46,955 nt of DNA from a virus. Its lineage: Duplodnaviria; Heunggongvirae; Uroviricota; Caudoviricetes. This document shows, in pieces, positions 1,782-8,930 of this stretch. The stretch is taken from IMG/VR virus record IMGVR_UViG_643348547_000013. One strand, written 5' to 3'. Numbering within the stretch: position 1 is the first letter of the stretch; every line of letters begins with the position of its first letter. The notes below the pieces were generated by a model. That model saw only the letters and a list, made by a program, of their open reading frames with translations, did not search any database and was not told where the DNA came from. Both the position numbers and the translations under genes were made by a program.

Positions 1782-3035
1782 ATGAAAGTCGAAATGAATA
1801 CTAAACTTTTGGCCTATTTAAACAATGAGTTACATGGAGTGTGGATAGATAGTGAAAATCGTAATATCCACATAATACTTAAATCAAGCCTTCCTATAAT
1901 TAAATCCGTCTGGTCAGGAGCACCTATCCACTTTTTGGTAGGTTTATCTACTAAAAATATACTAGTGATTGGGATGTTGATTGAAGATAATGTCGATAAT
2001 CCATTTTTACTAGCCTATCCACCAAGAGAGGCAGATGAAATTAAAGGGCTGGATTTGTTATTGTCAGGCGCTTATGATGGTATTCTATTATCATTTTTTG
2101 ACTCGCATACAATGCGTGTTATGGACCTGAAAATAAAAATTTCGGAAAATTTACCGTGTGAATGTTTAAAAAAATTTTGTGCTAATTCATATTCTCTCAA
2201 TTCAGGATTTAGGGAAGGTAATGAAGCAATGGATGAATTCTGCAACAATGCTTTGACTGGTAACGAGAAAATAATTAGTCTGCCACTAAGTGTAATCGAT
2301 AAAAAATCTTACCTAGCAAGTGTTCATGAACCAAACGATACCGTATTAACATATGAATTTAGCGTCAGTGAAAACGGCTCTGAGGGATATGAGCAGGAAG
2401 CTCTTATATACCATGCTTTGCGGCAGGTCTTTTCACCGGAGGAAGTGTTTTTTTCTCCAGATATTATTGAGGGTAATAAAAAAAGAGAACTAGTTGATAT
2501 TCTTATTGTAGAAAATGACTATGTATTATCTATACAGTCTAAAGCATCATCTTTGATTGAAATGGGTTTAAAATCTCATGAAAAGCTTTGTAGCATGTAT
2601 AAGAAAAAAGCATTGCAAGGGATCGATCAGGTTAAAGGCGTTATCCCAATTCTAAATAATGATGTGGTTATTAATTATGACGGGAGGGAATGCTTAATAA
2701 AGCGCAGAAAGGGTATTTATCATTTAGTGATAATCTCAGATCTTGTTTTAGAGAAAGAAGGTGCTGAAAAGATTTATAACGAAATTAGCAACCTTAAAGA
2801 GTCAAAAGGGGCGAAAGTTTTAGTTATGAGCCTTGAAGGTCTTGTAAATTTTATAAGACTATCAAGATTAAATAAAAGAATGTTTTGGGCAATGCTGGAG
2901 ACTAAATACAAGTTCAGCATAAAAAACCGTACAATTTTAATTAGAGATATCGACTCTAGCCAAGAGAATAATCTACCATTACTTGCCACTGATCAATACC
3001 TATCACTTCTTCGAGGTACGGGAAAATTAAAATAA
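1782..3035 (+). CDS. hypothetical protein, AT-rich orphan cargo gene between int and xis
   Basis: Uninterrupted 417-aa ORF, visibly AT-rich against GC-richer flanks, convergent with the downstream early operon; no family recognised; possible D239...E244...QSK254 nuclease-like motif. Confidence 0.6.
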   Translation: MKVEMNTKLLAYLNNELHGVWIDSENRNIHIILKSSLPIIKSVWSGAPIHFLVGLSTKNILVIGMLIEDNVDNPFLLAYPPREADEIKGLDLLLSGAYDGILLSFFDSHTMRVMDLKIKISENLPCECLKKFCANSYSLNSGFREGNEAMDEFCNNALTGNEKIISLPLSVIDKKSYLASVHEPNDTVLTYEFSVSENGSEGYEQEALIYHALRQVFSPEEVFFSPDIIEGNKKRELVDILIVENDYVLSIQSKASSLIEMGLKSHEKLCSMYKKKALQGIDQVKGVIPILNNDVVINYDGRECLIKRRKGIYHLVIISDLVLEKEGAEKIYNEISNLKESKGAKVLVMSLEGLVNFIRLSRLNKRMFWAMLETKYKFSIKNRTILIRDIDSSQENNLPLLATDQYLSLLRGTGKLK

Positions 3036-3320
3036 ATTGTATCAATGATACTGTTGCCACGTATCGAGACTGGCTTATGAACGGAAGGGTTTTCCAGCAG
3101 TTCAGCGACCGGAGCTGCACATCGATGCCGGATTGTGCCTGCAATTATGTACTTGGCTAAGAGGTGCTGCTGGCTCTGGATAGAATAACCCTAACGTCCA
3201 AAGAGCGCGCATTTTCATGTAAAAAAATAAATAGCTTGTCTGCTCTTGATACAGAGCAGACAGTCAGATCTGTTTGGCTTGTGCCATAGATGTGCCAGCT
3301 CACATTTGAGCTAATGTTTG

Positions 3321-3515
3321 TTACTCAATTACTCCTGCAAACCTGTATATCTTACGTGATGCCCATTTATTTGGGCAGGATTTAATATCAGGATCTGGAA
3401 AATCAGGCCGATATTTCTGACCAGTCCTCCGGTTTACACTGTTCCAGCGAAGCACCGTCGATATTGAAACGCCACAGAATTCGGCGACTTGTTTTGTTGT
3501 CATTAAGTTGTTCAT
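3321..3515 (-). CDS. excisionase / AlpA-like HTH DNA-binding protein
   Basis: Start chosen at internal Met (MNNLMTTKQVAEFCGVSISTVLRW) preceded by AGGAGGG; ATGA overlap with upstream gene stop; helix-turn-helix signature. Confidence 0.7.
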   Translation of the reverse strand: MNNLMTTKQVAEFCGVSISTVLRWNSVNRRTGQKYRPDFPDPDIKSCPNKWASRKIYRFAGVIE

Positions 3516-3859
3516 TGTTGACCCTCCTGTGGTTGTGCAGTTGAAAGACTCATGCCCGCGCGTTGTTGCCAGACGACCCAGCCGAGAGCCATATCCCACG
3601 CCATGTACTCGTTATCACCGTTTTTTGCTCTCCGACGATCGACTGTTTTACCGAAACGCTTTTCCATAAATAATTCATAGGCTGCGCGTTCATCTGGCTC
3701 AACTTCCAGAGATGCCAGTGCAATCCGTGCCAGTTCTAAATCATCTTCAAGCTCAGCGCGAATCTCAGCGAATGCACTCTGTGTTAAGGCGAACTCAATG
3801 CTCTGCACTTTATTCCGTGCGCGCTCAAGCAGTGCATGGTAGTTAATTTCGGTTGTCAT
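3512..3859 (-). CDS. hypothetical phage early protein
   Basis: 115-aa ORF with RBS (gaggtagg) and translational coupling to neighbours. Confidence 0.6.
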   Translation of the reverse strand: MTTEINYHALLERARNKVQSIEFALTQSAFAEIRAELEDDLELARIALASLEVEPDERAAYELFMEKRFGKTVDRRRAKNGDNEYMAWDMALGWVVWQQRAGMSLSTAQPQEGQQ

Positions 3860-4734
3860 ACCCCTACCTCTTCGAATTTCAATACCAATTGATCACCCCA
3901 GATTTCACATGACTCTGAACACGAGCCGGTATCGAATCGCCTGGCCTGTACCATCGCCTGATACAAATTTCTGTAGTCGCTGTTGGCAGACATTCTGGCA
4001 ATTCCGTCAAGCGTCAGGTGACCACGGTACATAACGTCTTTACCTGTTCTGCGATGACCATCCCTGACGTGTTTGCCTGTAACCAGCTCATTAAAAACTC
4101 GCATCAGACCAGGTTCGTCTTTACATGCAAGCCCCAGCTTTTGCGTTGACTTTTTGATGCAGAAAACACAGTTCCCGAGATGCTCCGGGATTTGCAAATC
4201 AAAAGGTTGTTTTCGCCACCACCGGATAACATCCGACTTATCAAAATCTGACAGTTCGGCAAGATACCGGACGCCCGATTTCGGTTTCAGCCTACGGGGT
4301 TCGTCTGCACGAATACCCAGCCATGTGATGTAATTACCTCGCCCGAAATGGTTATCGCAGTATTTCGTGAAAGGGATGAGTTTTAGCCTGTCAGTACAGA
4401 ACGCGCCGCCGATGTATGGCGTGCCGTACTTTTTAACCATGTCCATAAACGGTTTAAGTACCGACATTCGCGTCTGAATATCCTTTGGCTCCCATTCTGT
4501 ATAACCATTTGGCTGCCCAAGCTCAGGATTGATATCGACCTGCAACACAGTTAGTGGTATGCCCCAGAACTTCACAACCTCCCGAATAAAGCGGTATGTC
4601 AGCGGATGTTCGCAACCGGTATCCATAAAGATGTAGCAGACGTTATTGACAGCCTTTCTTTGTTCTTCCATCAGGTGAACAAGATATGCAGATGTTCTCC
4701 CGCCGGAAAAACTAACTACATGAGTTATGCACAT
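3856..4734 (-). CDS. PAPS-reductase-like (PP-loop ATP pyrophosphatase family) protein
   Basis: N-terminal SFSGGRTS PP-loop motif; GGAG RBS 9 nt upstream of ATG at 4734. Confidence 0.8.
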   Translation of the reverse strand: MCITHVVSFSGGRTSAYLVHLMEEQRKAVNNVCYIFMDTGCEHPLTYRFIREVVKFWGIPLTVLQVDINPELGQPNGYTEWEPKDIQTRMSVLKPFMDMVKKYGTPYIGGAFCTDRLKLIPFTKYCDNHFGRGNYITWLGIRADEPRRLKPKSGVRYLAELSDFDKSDVIRWWRKQPFDLQIPEHLGNCVFCIKKSTQKLGLACKDEPGLMRVFNELVTGKHVRDGHRRTGKDVMYRGHLTLDGIARMSANSDYRNLYQAMVQARRFDTGSCSESCEIWGDQLVLKFEEVGV

Positions 4735-4755
4735 TTGCGTAACTCCGATAACTCG

Positions 4756-5250
4756 TTAAAACGTTCCATAAACATCCCGTAGGCATGTCCTGGTGCCAGT
4801 GGAATCACTTTGAACATCGATACCTTCCAGTACAGGCCAGAAAGAGCCATCATCAAGCCCGAGATCGCGGCGTTCGGTTGCCAGCATAATGAGATCGGCA
4901 TATTTCACTGGCGTGCTCATAACAGGAGGTAACCCGTATTTCTCACGGATTACGGCGTCTATTTTTTCTTCCATCTGTTTATAGTCAGGAAGAAGGCGTT
5001 TCAGTGGCGCGGGGATGTCCTGACAATACGCTTCTGTTGCATCATGCATTAACGCTTCAAAAGCAAACTCCTCCGGAACCAGTTTGCTGCAAAGCACCGC
5101 ATGTTGGGCGACGCTGTAGAAGTGTGAAAGATGACCGGCAAAGCGACAGATATTTGAAAGGGAAACTGCGATATCGTTAATCACGATGTCGTCTTTATTT
5201 ATCCTGTCATAATAAAAATGCTTCCCGGAAAAAGTTTTAATAAATGACAT
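4756..5250 (-). CDS. yfdR: HD-domain phosphohydrolase (YfdR-like 5'-deoxynucleotidase family)
   Basis: H..H and HD motifs (HFYSVAQHAVL ... MHDATEAY); start set at internal Met (MSFIKTF) preceded by GGAG; the longer annotated start has no RBS. Confidence 0.7.
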   Translation of the reverse strand: MSFIKTFSGKHFYYDRINKDDIVINDIAVSLSNICRFAGHLSHFYSVAQHAVLCSKLVPEEFAFEALMHDATEAYCQDIPAPLKRLLPDYKQMEEKIDAVIREKYGLPPVMSTPVKYADLIMLATERRDLGLDDGSFWPVLEGIDVQSDSTGTRTCLRDVYGTF

Positions 5251-5378
5251 TTTGTTCTCCACTTTATATGCGCTGCACCGCGCTGAATTTTGGTTAAAGA
5301 AAACCCTCGCCATCAGGCGATTATTGAGTTAATTACGTTTCCATAAATGCCCCCGCAGGGGCATTTGCAGTAATGAAA

Positions 5379-6203
5379 TCAGGCGGTGAAAGTACCAATA
5401 AAGGTTTCTACTTTGCTGTCTTTGAATTTTTCAACAAGCAGATCACGAAATTCGTTAGCCATTTCTTCCTGCACTGCTTCCAGCTGAATAATGCGCAGAA
5501 CCAGTACAGGGCGATCACCAGTGATAATGCTGAGGCGTAATTTAAACGGACGTTCTTTCAGGCCTTCAAACGGAACGCATTTAAACTCAAATGCTACTGG
5601 CATAATGTCTTTGGTTTTCGCTTCGACAGACTCCATCAGAGAGCGTTTGCCGCTGAAGTCATTGTCTTCAAAATCAGCGGTCTGGTTTGCTTCAATCGTG
5701 ATTTTACGGACCGCCGCAGCCGCTTTTGTTGCCTGAATGGCGTCACCATTAGCATCAAAGCCCACAAGGTAGTCGGCCCAGTCTTCAATCCATTCTGCCA
5801 GTGACTTCTGGGAGTTACGCTCGCCGTTAACAGACAACAGGGCAGAGAACGGTGCTGTCTTTTTCAGTTTGAGAGTGGCGGTGTTATCTGCGTGACCTGG
5901 TTCATCAATAGTACCCAGGTTAAGCACACTGACGGCTCGCATATTATCAGCATCGATAAAGCAGCGGGTGCCTTCATCTGCAAGATCTTTAGAATAACGG
6001 GTAAAGTCATCGATGCTGGCAGTGGAAAGCGCACCACGGAAACGGAAGCGATTTAAATTAAATTTTTCCAGATCATGAATGCGGAAATTCTCAGGCAATG
6101 CCACAGCATCGGCACCAATCTTACTGATAATTTCATTAACACCCTGAGCAGAAATAAGGGCATGGATTTGATTAATTGCGGTTGCGTCTAAGTTCTGAGA
6201 CAT
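5379..6203 (-). CDS. yfdQ: YfdQ-like protein (DUF2303 family), CPS-53-type early gene
   Basis: 274-aa ORF, length and recalled sequence match the CPS-53 prophage YfdQ. Confidence 0.75.
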
Positions 6204-6268
6204 AATAAGTCCTCACTATATAAAGATATTCAGTGATGAGATAAATAATCAGTTTATTAAAAACGATA

Positions 6269-6631
6269 TTAACGACCTGCTGCGCGGAGTTTTCCGTCAG
6301 GTTCACCGGCAAGAGTCAGTAATTGTCCCTGGTCTTCCTGCAGAATAGTCAGGCGACCACCGCGATTGACATACATCGGCGTTTCGGTGGTGTCTTCTTC
6401 GGAAATTTTCCCGCGGTTAGTCGGGCGAACATATGAGAGTTTGTGTTTGATTTTTACACGGTTCTCATCAAACGGTTCGATTTCCAGGTTGAGCGAGACC
6501 TTACCTTTGGTTTTCGTGTTCATCACACCGGAAGCGACTTCACTGAGAACAGCGCCGATTTTGGTTTCAAATACGCCGCCGTCCAGCTCCCCGATAAATG
6601 CCTGCACATCAGTACTGCGTTCGCTAGCCAT
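6269..6631 (-). CDS. yfdP: YfdP-like protein
   Basis: 120-aa product from Met (MASERSTDV) preceded by GAGGAG; the longer ORF-track version (to 6817) is an unsupported N-terminal extension. Confidence 0.7.
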   Translation of the reverse strand: MASERSTDVQAFIGELDGGVFETKIGAVLSEVASGVMNTKTKGKVSLNLEIEPFDENRVKIKHKLSYVRPTNRGKISEEDTTETPMYVNRGGRLTILQEDQGQLLTLAGEPDGKLRAAGR

Positions 6632-7308
6632 TTTGCTGCTCCTCATCATATCGACCCCGCAAGGTCGGTTGGTTTCTCCACAAAACAGAGAAGAACACCA
6701 GCGGTGGCAGCCGCCCGGATGGATTGGGTTATGAGCCCGTCGTCCGGTGATGCCCTTCTCTGTTTTGTAAAAAGAGCGGTACCAGCCGGAAGCAAGTGTA
6801 CAAACTGGTACCGCCAAAGCAGTGGCTGTTGTGGTGACCGGTGCTGATCTCCGGCTTGCGGTTATTTCAGACTCTCACGGGCGTTTAATTGCCCCGCCGA
6901 ACAGCTCTTTTCCGCAATAGCTGCAATGTCTTTCGCGCATCAGCCTGCGCATTCACCACAACGCTGAGAGCATTGCCGGTGTCCGAATCGAACGGACCTT
7001 TTCCCTGCCCAACCCTCCCATCTGAATGGGACTGTCTGGAATTGAACCAGCACTTATGCCTTGCTCGTCAATGCTCTCATCGTTGCGTCCTGGTCTCTTC
7101 CCAAGCGTCAAACCGAATCGCCACGCTGGTTAGGCGTCTTATCAGCATCCTCATTGACTTGCACATTCCGGCTACCTGGTTTGTTTGCCCGAGCAAGGAG
7201 TGGATTATCCCCTTTAACGTCCCCAGACCGCTAACGACGCATGTGCCATACGCCGTGTTACAACCAAATTTTGTTTGAATCTTGCCTGCCTCATGTTTCT
7301 TTTGGATA

Positions 7309-7337
7309 CATTATGTATCTCAAGGGTACATTGTCAA
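7309..7337 (-). promoter_or_regulatory. candidate leftward early promoter (pL-like)
   Basis: On the minus strand TTGACA (plus 7332-7337), 17-nt spacer, CATAAT (plus 7309-7314); overlaps the 15-bp perfect palindrome GATACATTATGTATC (7304-7318). Confidence 0.4.
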
Positions 7338-7341
7338 GTAT

Positions 7342-7363
7342 AAAAAAACCTGCCGAAGCAGGT
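7342..7363 (-). terminator. rho-independent terminator downstream of the repressor gene
   Basis: Hairpin ACCTGC-CGAA-GCAGGT followed by a U7 run on the minus strand, just past the repressor stop. Confidence 0.5.
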
Positions 7364-7376
7364 TCATAAATATTGA

Positions 7377-8051
7377 TTAGGCCTTTATTGTGTATCTTCT
7401 TGGTTTTCCCGAGAAAATCACTGTACCAATTATAGAGCAATTACCGTTAATCTTAATGTAAGGCTCAGGCCAGTTTGGGTTTAATGCTTTGAGATAACGC
7501 TGTGTTCCATCTTCTATCAACCGCTTGAAGGTGGTTTCGCCTGAATCGTGCATCAATGCAATAACGTCGTCACCGTGGCAGGCAGGGACTTCAGGATCAA
7601 CAAAAATCATGTCTCCCGGGCGGTACTCATCAATCATTGAATCACCAATCACCCGCAAGATATAAGTCATTTCGCCACAGGGTACAGGGCAGGGATAAGT
7701 TTCTGCTGTGCTCAAATCAACCTCAGAATAGCCAACTTCTTTCCATGCTCCGGCCTGTACCCATGATATGACAGGGACTAACGTTATTTGTTTGTTAGTG
7801 ATTGAAACATCAGGTTTTTTTGTGATGTTCGTGGTCTGGTGTTCTTGATCAAGCCATCCGACAGGCAGGTCGAAACATTTTTCGATGTGCCTTGCCATGC
7901 TGTCACCGATATTTTTAGTAGCACCATCTCCCATAAACCTGCTGGTCTGGGTTGGCTCGCGATCAATCATGGTGGCAAAGGAAGAATTCCCGCCAACACC
8001 ATCTCTCAGTTTTCTGGCGTTAGACCGCCGGATGTCATGGACTGTTTTCAT
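7377..8051 (-). CDS. CI-type phage repressor, LexA/S24 peptidase family
   Basis: 224-aa ORF with C-terminal S24 autopeptidase region (ILRVIGDSM...); divergent from cro-like gene. Confidence 0.85.
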   Translation of the reverse strand: MKTVHDIRRSNARKLRDGVGGNSSFATMIDREPTQTSRFMGDGATKNIGDSMARHIEKCFDLPVGWLDQEHQTTNITKKPDVSITNKQITLVPVISWVQAGAWKEVGYSEVDLSTAETYPCPVPCGEMTYILRVIGDSMIDEYRPGDMIFVDPEVPACHGDDVIALMHDSGETTFKRLIEDGTQRYLKALNPNWPEPYIKINGNCSIIGTVIFSGKPRRYTIKA

Positions 8052-8342: not shown

Positions 8343-8603
8343 CAGAACACCTTCAATTTTTAACCACAGAACGATGAGGCTAACCGTGGGTAAGCATCAC
8401 TGGAAAGTAGAAAAACAGCCTGAGTGGTACGTGAAAGCTGTCAGAAAAACTATCGCGGCGTTGCCGGGGGGGTACGCTGAAGCTGCTGAGTGGCTAGATG
8501 TAACAGAGAACGCTTTATTCAACCGCCTTCGTGCAGATGGCGATCAGATTGAACCGCCCCGGGAATCCTGGAGACTAAACTTCCTGAGAAAGAGGTAAAC
8601 AGG

Positions 8604-8930
8604 ATGACTAAAAATACTCGTTTTTCCCCCGAAGTCCGTCAACGGGCAGTCCGTATGGTTCTGGAAAGTCAGAGCGAATATGACTCACAATGGGCGACAA
8701 TTTGTTCCATTGCTCCAAAGACTGGCTGTACGCCGGAGACTCTGCGTGTCTGGGTTCGCCAGCATGAGCGGGATACCGGGGGCGGTGATGGAGGGCTCAC
8801 CACCGCTGAACGTCAGCGTCTGAAAGAGCTGGAACGTGAAAATCGTGAACTGCGCCGCAGTAACGATATCCTTCGCCAGGCTTCCGCTTATTTTGCGAAG
8901 GCGGAGTTCGACCGCCTCTGGAAAAAATGA
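8604..8930 (+). CDS. IS629 OrfA (transposase N-terminal HTH protein)
   Basis: 108-aa product [22 protein letters not shown]... recalled as IS629 OrfA; A6 slippery run at its 3' end. Confidence 0.9.

Follow-up and report, generated by a model that had tools for sequence, protein, structure and literature searches.

The four leftward genes at 3856–6631 of the window (the whole 46 955-nt stretch of viral DNA that was analysed) make up an early gene block that is very common in Escherichia coli lambda-like prophages and has been annotated before. The block is composed of a fixed yfdP-yfdQ-yfdR cassette and a relocated copy of the lambda gene ninC, and the adjacency of its PP-loop gene (ninC) and its HD-domain gene (yfdR) is an accident of phage mosaicism. 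An earlier sequence-only reading had treated these two genes as a pairing, which their distribution does not bear out: ninC was found within 6 kb of yfdQ in none of 80 species-dereplicated yfdQ loci, it occupies the slot after yfdR in 8 of the 67 E. coli phage loci, and yfdR is frameshifted in the window. When 80 ninC loci were taken instead, yfdR lay close by in 13, every one of them from the E. coli lineage and with at least 91% identity. Genes for replication and lysis and genes of the nin region make up the neighbour clusters of these 80. As a rule ninC is found in the rightward nin region, where it separates ninB or dam from ninG; in divergent phages the replication genes, NinB or Dam flank it on one side and NinG, NinI or Q on the other. 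Recombination refills the cargo slot that separates yfdR from xis, so that proximity in lambdoid early operons says little about a shared function.

The flagged block is thus not new, and the useful result is the correction of the suggested enzyme pairing. Databases annotate the block gene for gene, the RefSeq names for identical DNA being yfdP, yfdQ, yfdR and PAPS reductase family protein. Part of it is present in more than half of the complete E. coli genomes (3220 of 5426 gave a partial match to 3300–7400), and the full arrangement including ninC is found in ∼192 of the 5426. YfdP, YfdQ and NinC are all extremely common phage proteins.

Layout of the leftward operon and the frameshift in yfdR

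All four minus-strand ORFs were present and co-oriented as first described, with gaps of 65, 128 and 21 nt between them. The operon extends beyond ninC into two overlapping genes, the second of which is xis (Table 1). For yfdP, a conserved ATG at 6631 gives a protein of 120 aa, and the 182 aa of the ORF finder is an over-extension. The 115-aa product of the gene after ninC had no Pfam, NCBIfam or PADLOC match; its phrog_660 relatives come after yfdR in 50 of the 67 E. coli phage loci.

Table 1. Features of the leftward early operon and its leader, in window positions
Feature	Position	Strand	Basis and remarks
cI terminator hairpin	7346–7365		pL-like promoter immediately downstream
pL-like sigma-70 promoter, TTGACA-16-CATAAT	7310..7337	-	consensus scan 11/12; putative function
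Multi-branched RNA domain, ∼135 nt	6955..7089	-	closing helix 19–20 bp; T-loop-like hairpins GGUUCAAUUCC, GGUCCGUUCGAUUCGGAC
Intrinsic-terminator-like hairpin GCGGUACCAG...CUGGUACCGC, then U-tract	6769..6814	-	MFE folds; putative function
Long leader hairpin, outer helix ∼21–26 bp (6680–6768)	6668..6768	-	ends in box GUGUGGAGAAAC(C/U)AAC (6668–6683)
Conserved box TGTGGAGAAAC(C/T)AAC	6668–6682 and 10230–10244	- and +	one per early operon
Small hairpin	6652–6667	-	after conserved box
SD GAGGAG	6639–6644	-	after small hairpin
yfdP, 120 aa, PF27127 family	6269..6631	-	first gene of operon; phrog_204; PF27127 carried by homologues
yfdQ, 274 aa, DUF2303 (PF10065)	5379..6203	-	2e-92, full length
yfdR, HD-domain 5′-deoxynucleotidase/DnaA-binding, frameshifted	4756..5250	-	ORF 4756–5313, real ATG 5250
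ninC orthologue, 292 aa, PP-loop, PAPS_reduct superfamily	3856..4734	-	78% to lambda NinC; phrog_424 1.6e-90
phrog_660 protein, 115 aa	3512..3859	-	phrog_660 2.6e-22; same operon; 4-nt overlap with ninC
xis, excisionase	3321..3518	-	final gene of operon; phrog_1553 excisionase 7.7e-35; HTH_17/MerR weak

The resemblance to the K-12 prophage CPS-53 (KpLE1), also recognised from the first, was confirmed by gene order, protein families and RefSeq annotation for yfdP, yfdQ and yfdR. In CPS-53 these genes are followed by yfdS and yfdT, whereas the window has ninC and the phrog_660 gene at those positions and a frameshifted yfdR. The leader and immunity region of K-12-type loci are also unlike those of the window (loci L165 and L166 are without the leader motifs). 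Lambda carries ninC between ninB and ninD, within its rightward nin region. The window copy belongs instead to the leftward pL operon, where it stands between yfdR and xis, and ninC is missing from the nin region of the window, in which dam and rusA are present. The phage is also without exo, bet and gam.

The yfdR product matched phrog_318 (7e-94) and carries an HD motif (H40 and H69-D70), with an alignment of residues 19–175 to the solved homologue Atu1052 (2gz4; E 1.5e-13). A YfbR-like Pfam match (1.4e-5) scored 25.3, below the cut-off of 25.9. Relative to the E. coli locus in NZ_CP070007, which is otherwise 100% identical to the block over the alignment and whose intact gene RefSeq names yfdR, the window has an 11-bp deletion at 4818/4819. 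The 178-aa frame is replaced by 144 native residues followed by 20 out-of-frame residues, and the conserved C-terminal 34 residues, which align with Atu1052, are gone. The intact gene would end at 4725, its stop overlapping the ninC start by 10 nt.

Structured RNAs in the pL leader

The genes had been described as following pL. A pL-like promoter does lie upstream, and promoter and terminator are annotated at the homologous place in phage Ayreon; yfdP does not follow directly, however, as a structured leader of ∼670 nt, including an intrinsic-terminator-like hairpin, intervenes. This leader holds two conserved structured RNAs that are absent from Rfam, neither having a family match at the gathering score or at E values up to 10.

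The first is the multi-branched domain of ∼135 nt, which occurs in ∼12 genera. It is 84% identical in nucleotide sequence to its counterpart in a Yersinia ruckeri prophage, where the flanking proteins are only 55–60% identical. Fold z-scores ranged from −4.5 to −6.8, and RNAalifold returned 36 pairs, nine of them with compensatory changes. A tRNA or tmRNA origin of the T-loop-like hairpins was considered and dropped, ARAGORN having found none. Further downstream, MFE folding placed a GC-rich hairpin with a T-run at the terminator-like position, both in the window and in the majority of homologous loci.

The second RNA is the long hairpin, found in ∼58 of 76 distinct loci with differing helix sequences and with fold z-scores of −3.0 to −7.5. 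In the MAFFT alignment A5, 82.8% of cells were paired compared with 71.9% in shuffles, and double changes were seen at 15 of 21 pairs. The A5 covariation was 0.360 versus 0.191 (0/500), with slid controls at 0.086–0.149. In A4, a gappy alignment less clean than A5, a slid control (+2) was almost level with the real structure, and RNAalifold returned no consensus structure on either gappy alignment, A4 or A5.

The box at the end of this hairpin occurs in both early operons, each copy oriented with transcription, and the same arrangement was found in 22 other loci. The element resembles lambda nutL/nutR and HK022 putL/putR in this respect, a hairpin and a GU-rich box occurring once in each early operon and about equally far from pL and pR. 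The helix of 21–26 bp is of the length class that RNase III cuts, as at the RNase III site of the lambda N leader. Among the differences, the window element is not followed by an N-like gene (from pL to yfdP no ORF resembling N was recognised), and its left copy lies downstream, not upstream, of the terminator-like hairpin. To our knowledge the leader sequences are unrelated to lambda boxA/boxB. Conserved structured leader RNAs may explain the control of early transcription in lambdoid phages that have no N.

Possible functions of NinC and the yfdP-yfdQ-yfdR cassette

We lean, by a little, towards the view that a mosaic lambdoid prophage has here an ordinary early-left (pL) operon with two independent parts, as opposed to a two-enzyme pathway. 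The first part would be the conserved yfdP-yfdQ(-yfdR) cassette, for which host takeover at the replication origin is the best-supported activity; the second would be the variable cargo slot between yfdR and xis, filled here by the relocated ninC.

For the cassette, YfdR, which has an HD fold and is weakly active as a dNMP phosphatase, would bind DnaA domain I at Phe46 as a rival of DiaA and DnaB; early in lytic growth, YfdR together with YfdQ would reduce initiation at oriC. The literature behind this concerns CPS-53 genes. Purified YfdR binds DnaA domain I via Phe46 in competition with DiaA and DnaB, in pull-downs with the K-12 protein, and is a weak 5′-deoxynucleotidase with nucleotide affinities far below those of YfbR (PMC4776307). 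YfdR shares the HD fold and motif with the 5′-deoxynucleotidases YfbR and Atu1052, but DnaA binding is reported for YfdR only. Multicopy yfdQ and yfdR with either yfdS or yfdT inhibit initiation at oriC, and yfdP is dispensable for the effect, which appears only on overexpression; deletion gives no initiation phenotype, and the authors allow that the effect could be an artefact (PMC4776307). Against the preferred reading, the effect needed yfdS or yfdT, which in that form are absent from this prophage. The statement that none of the four genes has an assigned phage function was nevertheless too strong, since YfdR has been characterised (PMC4776307) and the PP-loop gene is orthologous to lambda NinC.

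That orthology is plain from the alignment: 222 of 285 residues (78%) are identical to lambda NinC without gaps, and the two proteins share length, PP-loop and cysteine motifs. Across 33 NinC-family sequences at 50–79% identity, the PP-loop SGGRTS (residues 10–15; S8, S10, G11, G12, R13 and S15), a DTG motif and six cysteines (C113, C126, C189xxC192 and C272xxxC276) are invariant. Since a canonical PP-loop and six cysteines have been kept, the most likely chemistry would be adenylation of a substrate with ATP followed by transfer of sulfur (or another nucleophile) through a cysteine or Fe-S centre, a reaction that DndC and SspD carry out on DNA. We infer this from the motifs and from a similarity confined to the N-terminal domain (residues 5–150 with SspD and 4–100 with PAPS reductases). 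Under the preferred reading NinC would work independently of YfdR.

The substrate of NinC could itself be DNA, and a nucleic-acid-directed role for NinC alone is plausible from its sequence. A fuller version, in which NinC is a DNA-directed enzyme of sulfur or other modification supplied with sulfur by host IscS, or acts as counter-defence against phosphorothioate-based systems (Dnd, Ssp, BREX-4) or restriction, is possible but tentative. Among the PADLOC defence models, NinC matched SspD best (1.2e-15; residues 5–150 on profile positions 2–123 of 277), followed by BrxP (1.5e-4) and DndC (4e-3, with no single stretch passing alone). NinC has the N-terminal PP-loop nucleotide-binding domain in common with these proteins, and its PP-loop, CxxC and further invariant cysteines would be compatible with an Fe-S or persulfide centre. 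In addition, NinC-family proteins of Vibrio phages are fused to a Dam methyltransferase (PF05869), and in several nin regions the gene directly upstream encodes Dam. A 2026 preprint counts phage homologues of DndC/SspD of the PAPS-reductase type among candidate anti-defence genes under Aca regulation (10.64898/2026.07.27.740549), and a phage PAPS reductase aiding Dnd evasion is cited there (its reference 56). On the other side, the similarity covers only the nucleotide-binding half, and DndC and BrxP, with profiles of 468–779 positions, are much bigger than NinC. The known systems also have a cysteine desulfurase, a DndD/SspC ATPase and DndE/SspB. The PADLOC models scanned include the partners DndA/D/E and SspA/B/C, and none of them matched among the six window proteins scanned; the five other than NinC (three of the module, 3512–3859 and a 417-aa ORF at 1782–3035) had no PADLOC match. 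We know of no phosphorothioate or other NinC-dependent mark on lambda DNA. Lambda NinC (Orf290) is non-essential (PMC10695390, PMC3224144), ninC being dispensable for plaque formation, and phage with the nin5 deletion is not known to plate poorly on K-12 (PMC10695390). Separately, JSS1_004 was examined as a case of a phage PAPS reductase acting against Dnd and proved to be an unrelated kinase.

A YfdQ search of viral contigs returned only near-identical E. coli copies, so the 80 loci were taken from a species-dereplicated genome scan. In these, yfdP and yfdQ form an obligate pair, adjacent in 79 of 80 species-level loci at identities down to 41%, and yfdR follows yfdQ in 59 of 80 (67 of 67 in the E. 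coli phage loci). As 21 of the 80 keep the pair without yfdR, its core function cannot rest on YfdR or on DnaA binding, a point against the preferred reading. The pair spans phages of Enterobacterales, Vibrionaceae, Marinobacter, Hahella and Xanthomonas, with or without yfdR. YfdQ fits the DUF2303 model throughout (residues 7–272 on profile positions 2–269 of 269), and a deposited 36-chain structure (9O7M assembly) suggests that it is a large oligomer; no structural homologue of YfdP or YfdQ was found.

These data leave some room for YfdP-YfdQ as an early anti-defence, DNA-protection or recombination-associated complex to which the DnaA effect of YfdR is incidental, a proposal that we regard as rather unlikely. 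The obligate linkage speaks for it, as does the position of the pair first after pL, probably that of many anti-restriction genes. In Xanthomonas phage CP2 the pair heads an operon with Erf, exonuclease and SSB, an order that a role in DNA transactions or against nucleases would fit as well. A DUF2303 protein was detected in virions of Burkholderia phage JC1 (PMC9144972), and weak sensitivity of a yfdQ deletion to MMS and H2O2 is cited in PMC4776307. The cluster is also common among lambdoid phages without a Rec module (PMC12315714). It also accompanies complete Rec modules, however, and the authors of that study therefore thought it improbable that the cluster serves in recombination (PMC12315714); replacement of the recombination module in a phage without exo/bet/gam was dropped as an explanation on the same ground. 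Nor did PADLOC, Pfam or structural comparison give any similarity to known anti-defence or recombination proteins.

Three bolder proposals are equally doubtful. YfdP-YfdQ, an obligate pair that leads the operon at pL, is conserved between phages of E. coli and Xanthomonas and has a 36-chain assembly, could be a machine of early takeover or anti-defence that has so far gone unrecognised. NinC could act on DNA by itself, as a PP-loop/Fe-S enzyme related to DndC/SspD. The two leader RNAs could control the operon; as one of them has a partner in the rightward operon, they would then be nutL/nutR-like sites in a lambdoid group that has no N gene.

The relationship between NinC and YfdR

PP-loop enzymes and HD nucleotidases both occur in phage nucleotide-modification pathways. 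A joint pathway of nucleotide or DNA modification or counter-defence, for example with the HD enzyme clearing or shaping the dNMP pool and the PP-loop enzyme building a modified base, could draw on the adjacency of the genes, on the 10-nt overlap of the intact yfdR stop with the ninC start, which is compatible with translational coupling, and on the resemblance of the NinC family to DndC/SspD and its fusion to Dam in some phages. We consider it very unlikely. The adjacency is specific to one lineage, lambda and most phages have ninC without yfdR, and most yfdPQR phages have no ninC in that operon. In the window yfdR is frameshifted, whereas ninC is intact.

The description of ninC as encoding a PP-loop enzyme was upheld, without making it a true PAPS reductase. 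A CysH serving as an auxiliary metabolic gene to boost host assimilatory sulfate reduction is scarcely credible in spite of the PF01507 match (5.9e-9; 36.6 bits against a cut-off of 22.5, over residues 5–72 of 292 only), the database names and the PHROGs category ‘moron, auxiliary metabolic gene’, as alignment to CysH and APS reductases is limited to the N-terminal 70–100 residues (PDB PAPS and APS reductases align with residues 4–100 only), the CysH catalytic motif ECGLH (searched as ECG[LIV]H) is absent from the window protein and from all 33 aligned members, and the PP-loop is canonical, in contrast to the degenerate SSSFG of CysH.

Finally, the 11-bp deletion in yfdR is private to this copy, the allele being absent from 5426 E. 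coli genomes and 160 viral loci, and the rightward operon is interrupted by an IS3-family element. With the C-terminus of YfdR lost and the rightward operon disrupted, the prophage is decaying.

Layout of the leftward operon

The sequence-only reading had described four co-oriented genes following pL, and its anatomy of the module was right: the ORFs follow one another across 3856–6631 on that strand. The features of the operon, its leader and its surroundings are listed below.

Features of the leftward operon and neighbouring elements, with positions in the window.
Feature	Position	Strand	Details
xis	3321–3518	−	same operon; overlaps its upstream neighbour
phrog_660 gene	3512–3859	−	115 aa; same operon; overlaps its upstream neighbour
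ninC (PAPS_reduct-family gene)	3856–4734	−	292 aa; PF01507 5.9e-9, residues 5–72 only; phrog_424 1.6e-90
yfdR (HD-domain gene)	4756–5313 (ORF)	−	YfbR-like 1.4e-5; phrog_318 'dNMP phosphatase' 7e-94
yfdQ	5379–6203	−	274 aa; DUF2303 2e-92
yfdP	6269–6631	−	120 aa; phrog_204; homologues carry PF27127
Long hairpin	6680–6768	−	21–26 bp outer helix
Terminator-like hairpin and U-tract	6769–6814	−	upstream of the long hairpin
Multi-branched RNA domain	6955–7089	−	~135 nt; ~220 nt downstream of pL; 19–20 bp closing helix, two T-loop-like hairpins
pL-like promoter	7337–7310	−	TTGACA-16-CATAAT, near-consensus; annotated promoter at the homologous place in phage Ayreon
Terminator hairpin	7346–7365		beside cI
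LexA-type cI repressor gene	7377–8051		
IS3-family element	8550–9859		~1.3 kb; 25-nt terminal inverted repeats (8550–8574, 9835–9859); two overlapping transposase ORFs

The module is real, and the yfdPQR and ninC block is known, annotated and very common. RefSeq names the same DNA yfdP, yfdQ, yfdR and 'phosphoadenosine phosphosulfate reductase family protein'. Of 5426 complete E. coli genomes, 3220 share part of the 4.1-kb stretch 3300–7400 and 192 share 80% or more of its length. The yfdP–yfdQ–yfdR core is shared by many Stx-converting phages and by mEp460, Ayreon and 2H10. What remains of interest is the unexplained YfdP–YfdQ pair, the chemistry of NinC and the leader RNAs.

Two neighbouring features were also noted. 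The IS3-family element contains an ALIL frameshift pseudoknot (8885–9001) and disrupts a ymfL-like gene to the right of cro; related genomes do not carry the element at that site. Between the integrase gene and xis lies a 417-aa ORF (1782–3035, +) of low G+C (0.32–0.37). It has a match to phrog_30399, of unknown function, and none in Pfam, NCBIfam or PADLOC. In location and composition it resembles a typical moron or defence cargo gene.

The yfdP–yfdQ cassette

In 79 of 80 species-dereplicated yfdQ loci, yfdP lies immediately upstream of yfdQ, the exception being a truncated contig, and the order holds in Marinobacter, Hahella and Photobacterium, at identities as low as 41%. The early operon of Xanthomonas phage CP2 (L245) opens with the pair (2639–3892) after a gene-free stretch of ∼1.5 kb, CP2 ORF38 being a YfdP homologue (hhalign 99.3%, E 5e-20); the genes that follow encode Erf, an exonuclease, an endonuclease and SSB. 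A 'YfdQ Protein' from CP2-like Xanthomonas/Xylella phages, ∼40% identical to the window YfdQ, is present in PDB as 9O7M, with 36 chains in the entry; no publication describing it was found in the literature. AF2 models of YfdQ (pLDDT 77) and YfdP (pLDDT 73) gave no informative structural neighbours in fold libraries that did not include 9O7M.

With moderate confidence, the best-supported mechanism for the cassette is that it would take over replication via DnaA. Multicopy yfdQ and yfdR, together with yfdS or yfdT, suppress over-initiation and inhibit initiation at oriC, and purified YfdR binds DnaA via Phe46, in competition with DiaA and DnaB (PMC4776307). In the same study yfdP was dispensable for oriC inhibition, and deletion had no initiation phenotype (PMC4776307). 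A live rival is an anti-defence or DNA-transaction role for YfdP–YfdQ. One reason for keeping it is that yfdR follows yfdQ in 59 of the 80 loci, leaving 21 that have the pair without yfdR. As further background, virions of Burkholderia phage JC1 have an associated DUF2303 protein (PMC9144972), and the cluster is frequent in lambdoid phages that have no Rec module, though not confined to them (PMC12315714).

ninC and the cargo slot

Compared directly with lambda NinC, the PP-loop gene product is 78% identical over 285 residues with no gaps; by this comparison the gene is lambda ninC. When the gene neighbours of 80 relatives from viral contigs were clustered, most phages, whose ninC is 40–80% identical to that of the window, proved to carry it in the rightward operon. 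It follows the replication genes, NinB and in some cases a Dam methyltransferase, and precedes NinG/Rap, the NinI phosphatase, Q and lysis genes. Lambda NinC is dispensable, as lambda tolerates deletion of the entire nin region and, with Q supplied, CRISPRi knock-down is neutral (PMC10695390), and it is counted among the poorly understood lambda proteins (PMC3224144).

The suggestion that a PP-loop enzyme is paired with the HD enzyme for nucleotide or DNA modification or counter-defence found no support. Not one of the 80 species-dereplicated yfdQ loci has ninC within 6 kb, and among the 80 ninC loci yfdR was nearby in 13, yfdQ in 10 and yfdP in nine, all of these loci belonging to the E. coli lineage (NinC at least 91% identical). 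Among the 67 E. coli phage loci whose flanks were long enough, the slot after yfdR holds ninC in eight, a phrog_660-type gene in 50, a probable DUF551 gene in 41 and an Rv2179c-like exonuclease in 18. The adjacency arose by mosaic recombination in this cargo slot and reflects no conserved functional link.

Moreover, the yfdR partner is a pseudogene in the window copy. All 4101 bases are identical to those of NZ_CP070007, the sole difference being an 11-bp deletion at 4818/4819 (TCTGTTGCCGG on the + strand of that reference), which frameshifts yfdR. From its true start, the ATG at 5250, the gene now reaches a stop at 4756 after 144 native and 20 out-of-frame residues; intact yfdR encodes 178 aa and would end at 4725. 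The missing stretch is covered by the alignment to Atu1052, a homologue of solved structure (2gz4, E 1.5e-13, alignment to residue 175), and therefore belongs to the fold. The deletion junction was found in none of the 5426 complete E. coli genomes and none of 160 viral loci.

With regard to chemistry, 33 NinC-family members (50–79% identity) have invariant S8, S10-G11-G12-R13, S15 and D38-T39-G40, together with invariant cysteines C113, C126, C189xxC192 and C272xxxC276. The SGGRTS of the family is a canonical PP-loop, whereas true PAPS reductases have SSSFG at this position and a catalytic ECGLH motif, which is absent from the window protein and the 33 aligned members. Alignment to PAPS and APS reductases in PDB is confined to the first ∼100 NinC residues. 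Among defence-system models the best match was SspD (1.2e-15), followed by BrxP and DndC; DndC and SspD act in DNA phosphorothioation as ATP pyrophosphatases (PMC8569181, PMC12707154). A PADLOC scan of six window proteins found no partner genes for a DndC/SspD-type system. Two NinC relatives from Vibrio phages (P0073 and P0077; Vibrio phage 44E38.1) occur as fusions with a PF05869 Dam methyltransferase, and several nin regions have a Dam gene directly upstream of ninC. The most reasonable inference from these sequence features is that NinC would catalyse an ATP-dependent, cysteine-mediated reaction on nucleic acid. Phage PAPS-reductase homologues have independently been named candidate anti-defence genes in a 2026 preprint (10.64898/2026.07.27.740549).

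Leader RNAs and the rightward operon

The yfdP start lies ∼670 nt after pL, and two segments of this leader are more conserved than the flanking proteins. The multi-branched domain shows 78–94% identity across ∼12 genera, with neighbouring proteins ∼55–60% identical. Its fold z-scores were −4.5 to −6.8 in six genera, and RNAalifold gave 36 pairs, nine with compensatory changes, in a clean 10-sequence alignment. There was no Rfam or ARAGORN match.

The second element (6668–6814), directly 5′ of yfdP, occurs in ∼58 of 76 distinct loci, in Enterobacterales, and has no Rfam match. The sequence of the outer helix of its long hairpin varies between genera, the helix always ending at a box, GUGUGGAG(A/U)AA, located 28–54 nt upstream of the yfdP ATG. 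The 16 diverse copies folded gave z-scores of −3.0 to −7.5. In a sequence-only alignment, where the individual fold of each sequence was used to trim the hairpin ends, a step that somewhat favours the result, helix pairing was 82.8% versus 71.9% in shuffles, 15 of 21 pairs had double changes, and the covariation score was 0.360 versus 0.191 (0/500), with slid controls much lower.

The box occurs a second time in the rightward early operon, as TGTGGAGAAACTAAC (10230–10244, +). There it is preceded by a covarying GC-rich hairpin, GACGCCCG...CGGGCGTC (10185–10214, +), and stands just upstream of the ATG at 10247 (ORF 10247–11083, +). The same order of hairpin, box and ATG is found in 22 other loci (among the comparison loci L164–L234, opposite strand). 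Boxes in both operons of the window prophage mirror the arrangement of nutL and nutR. As hypotheses only, the leader element and its rightward copy could be a nut/put-like pair, an RNase III site or a translational operator.

Within the span of ORF 10247–11083 are Rfam matches above gathering score to isrK (10607–10683, +) and C4 antisense RNA (10708–10795, +), which look like a P1/P7-type antisense immunity module. The rightward operon also includes the prophage's own phage Dam gene (12585–13271). Three tandem copies of ∼39 nt (GTGCAGGAGATTCACTAGGGGGTAGTGCA...; 11574–11678) inside the replication-protein ORF 11309–12127 are probably origin iterons.
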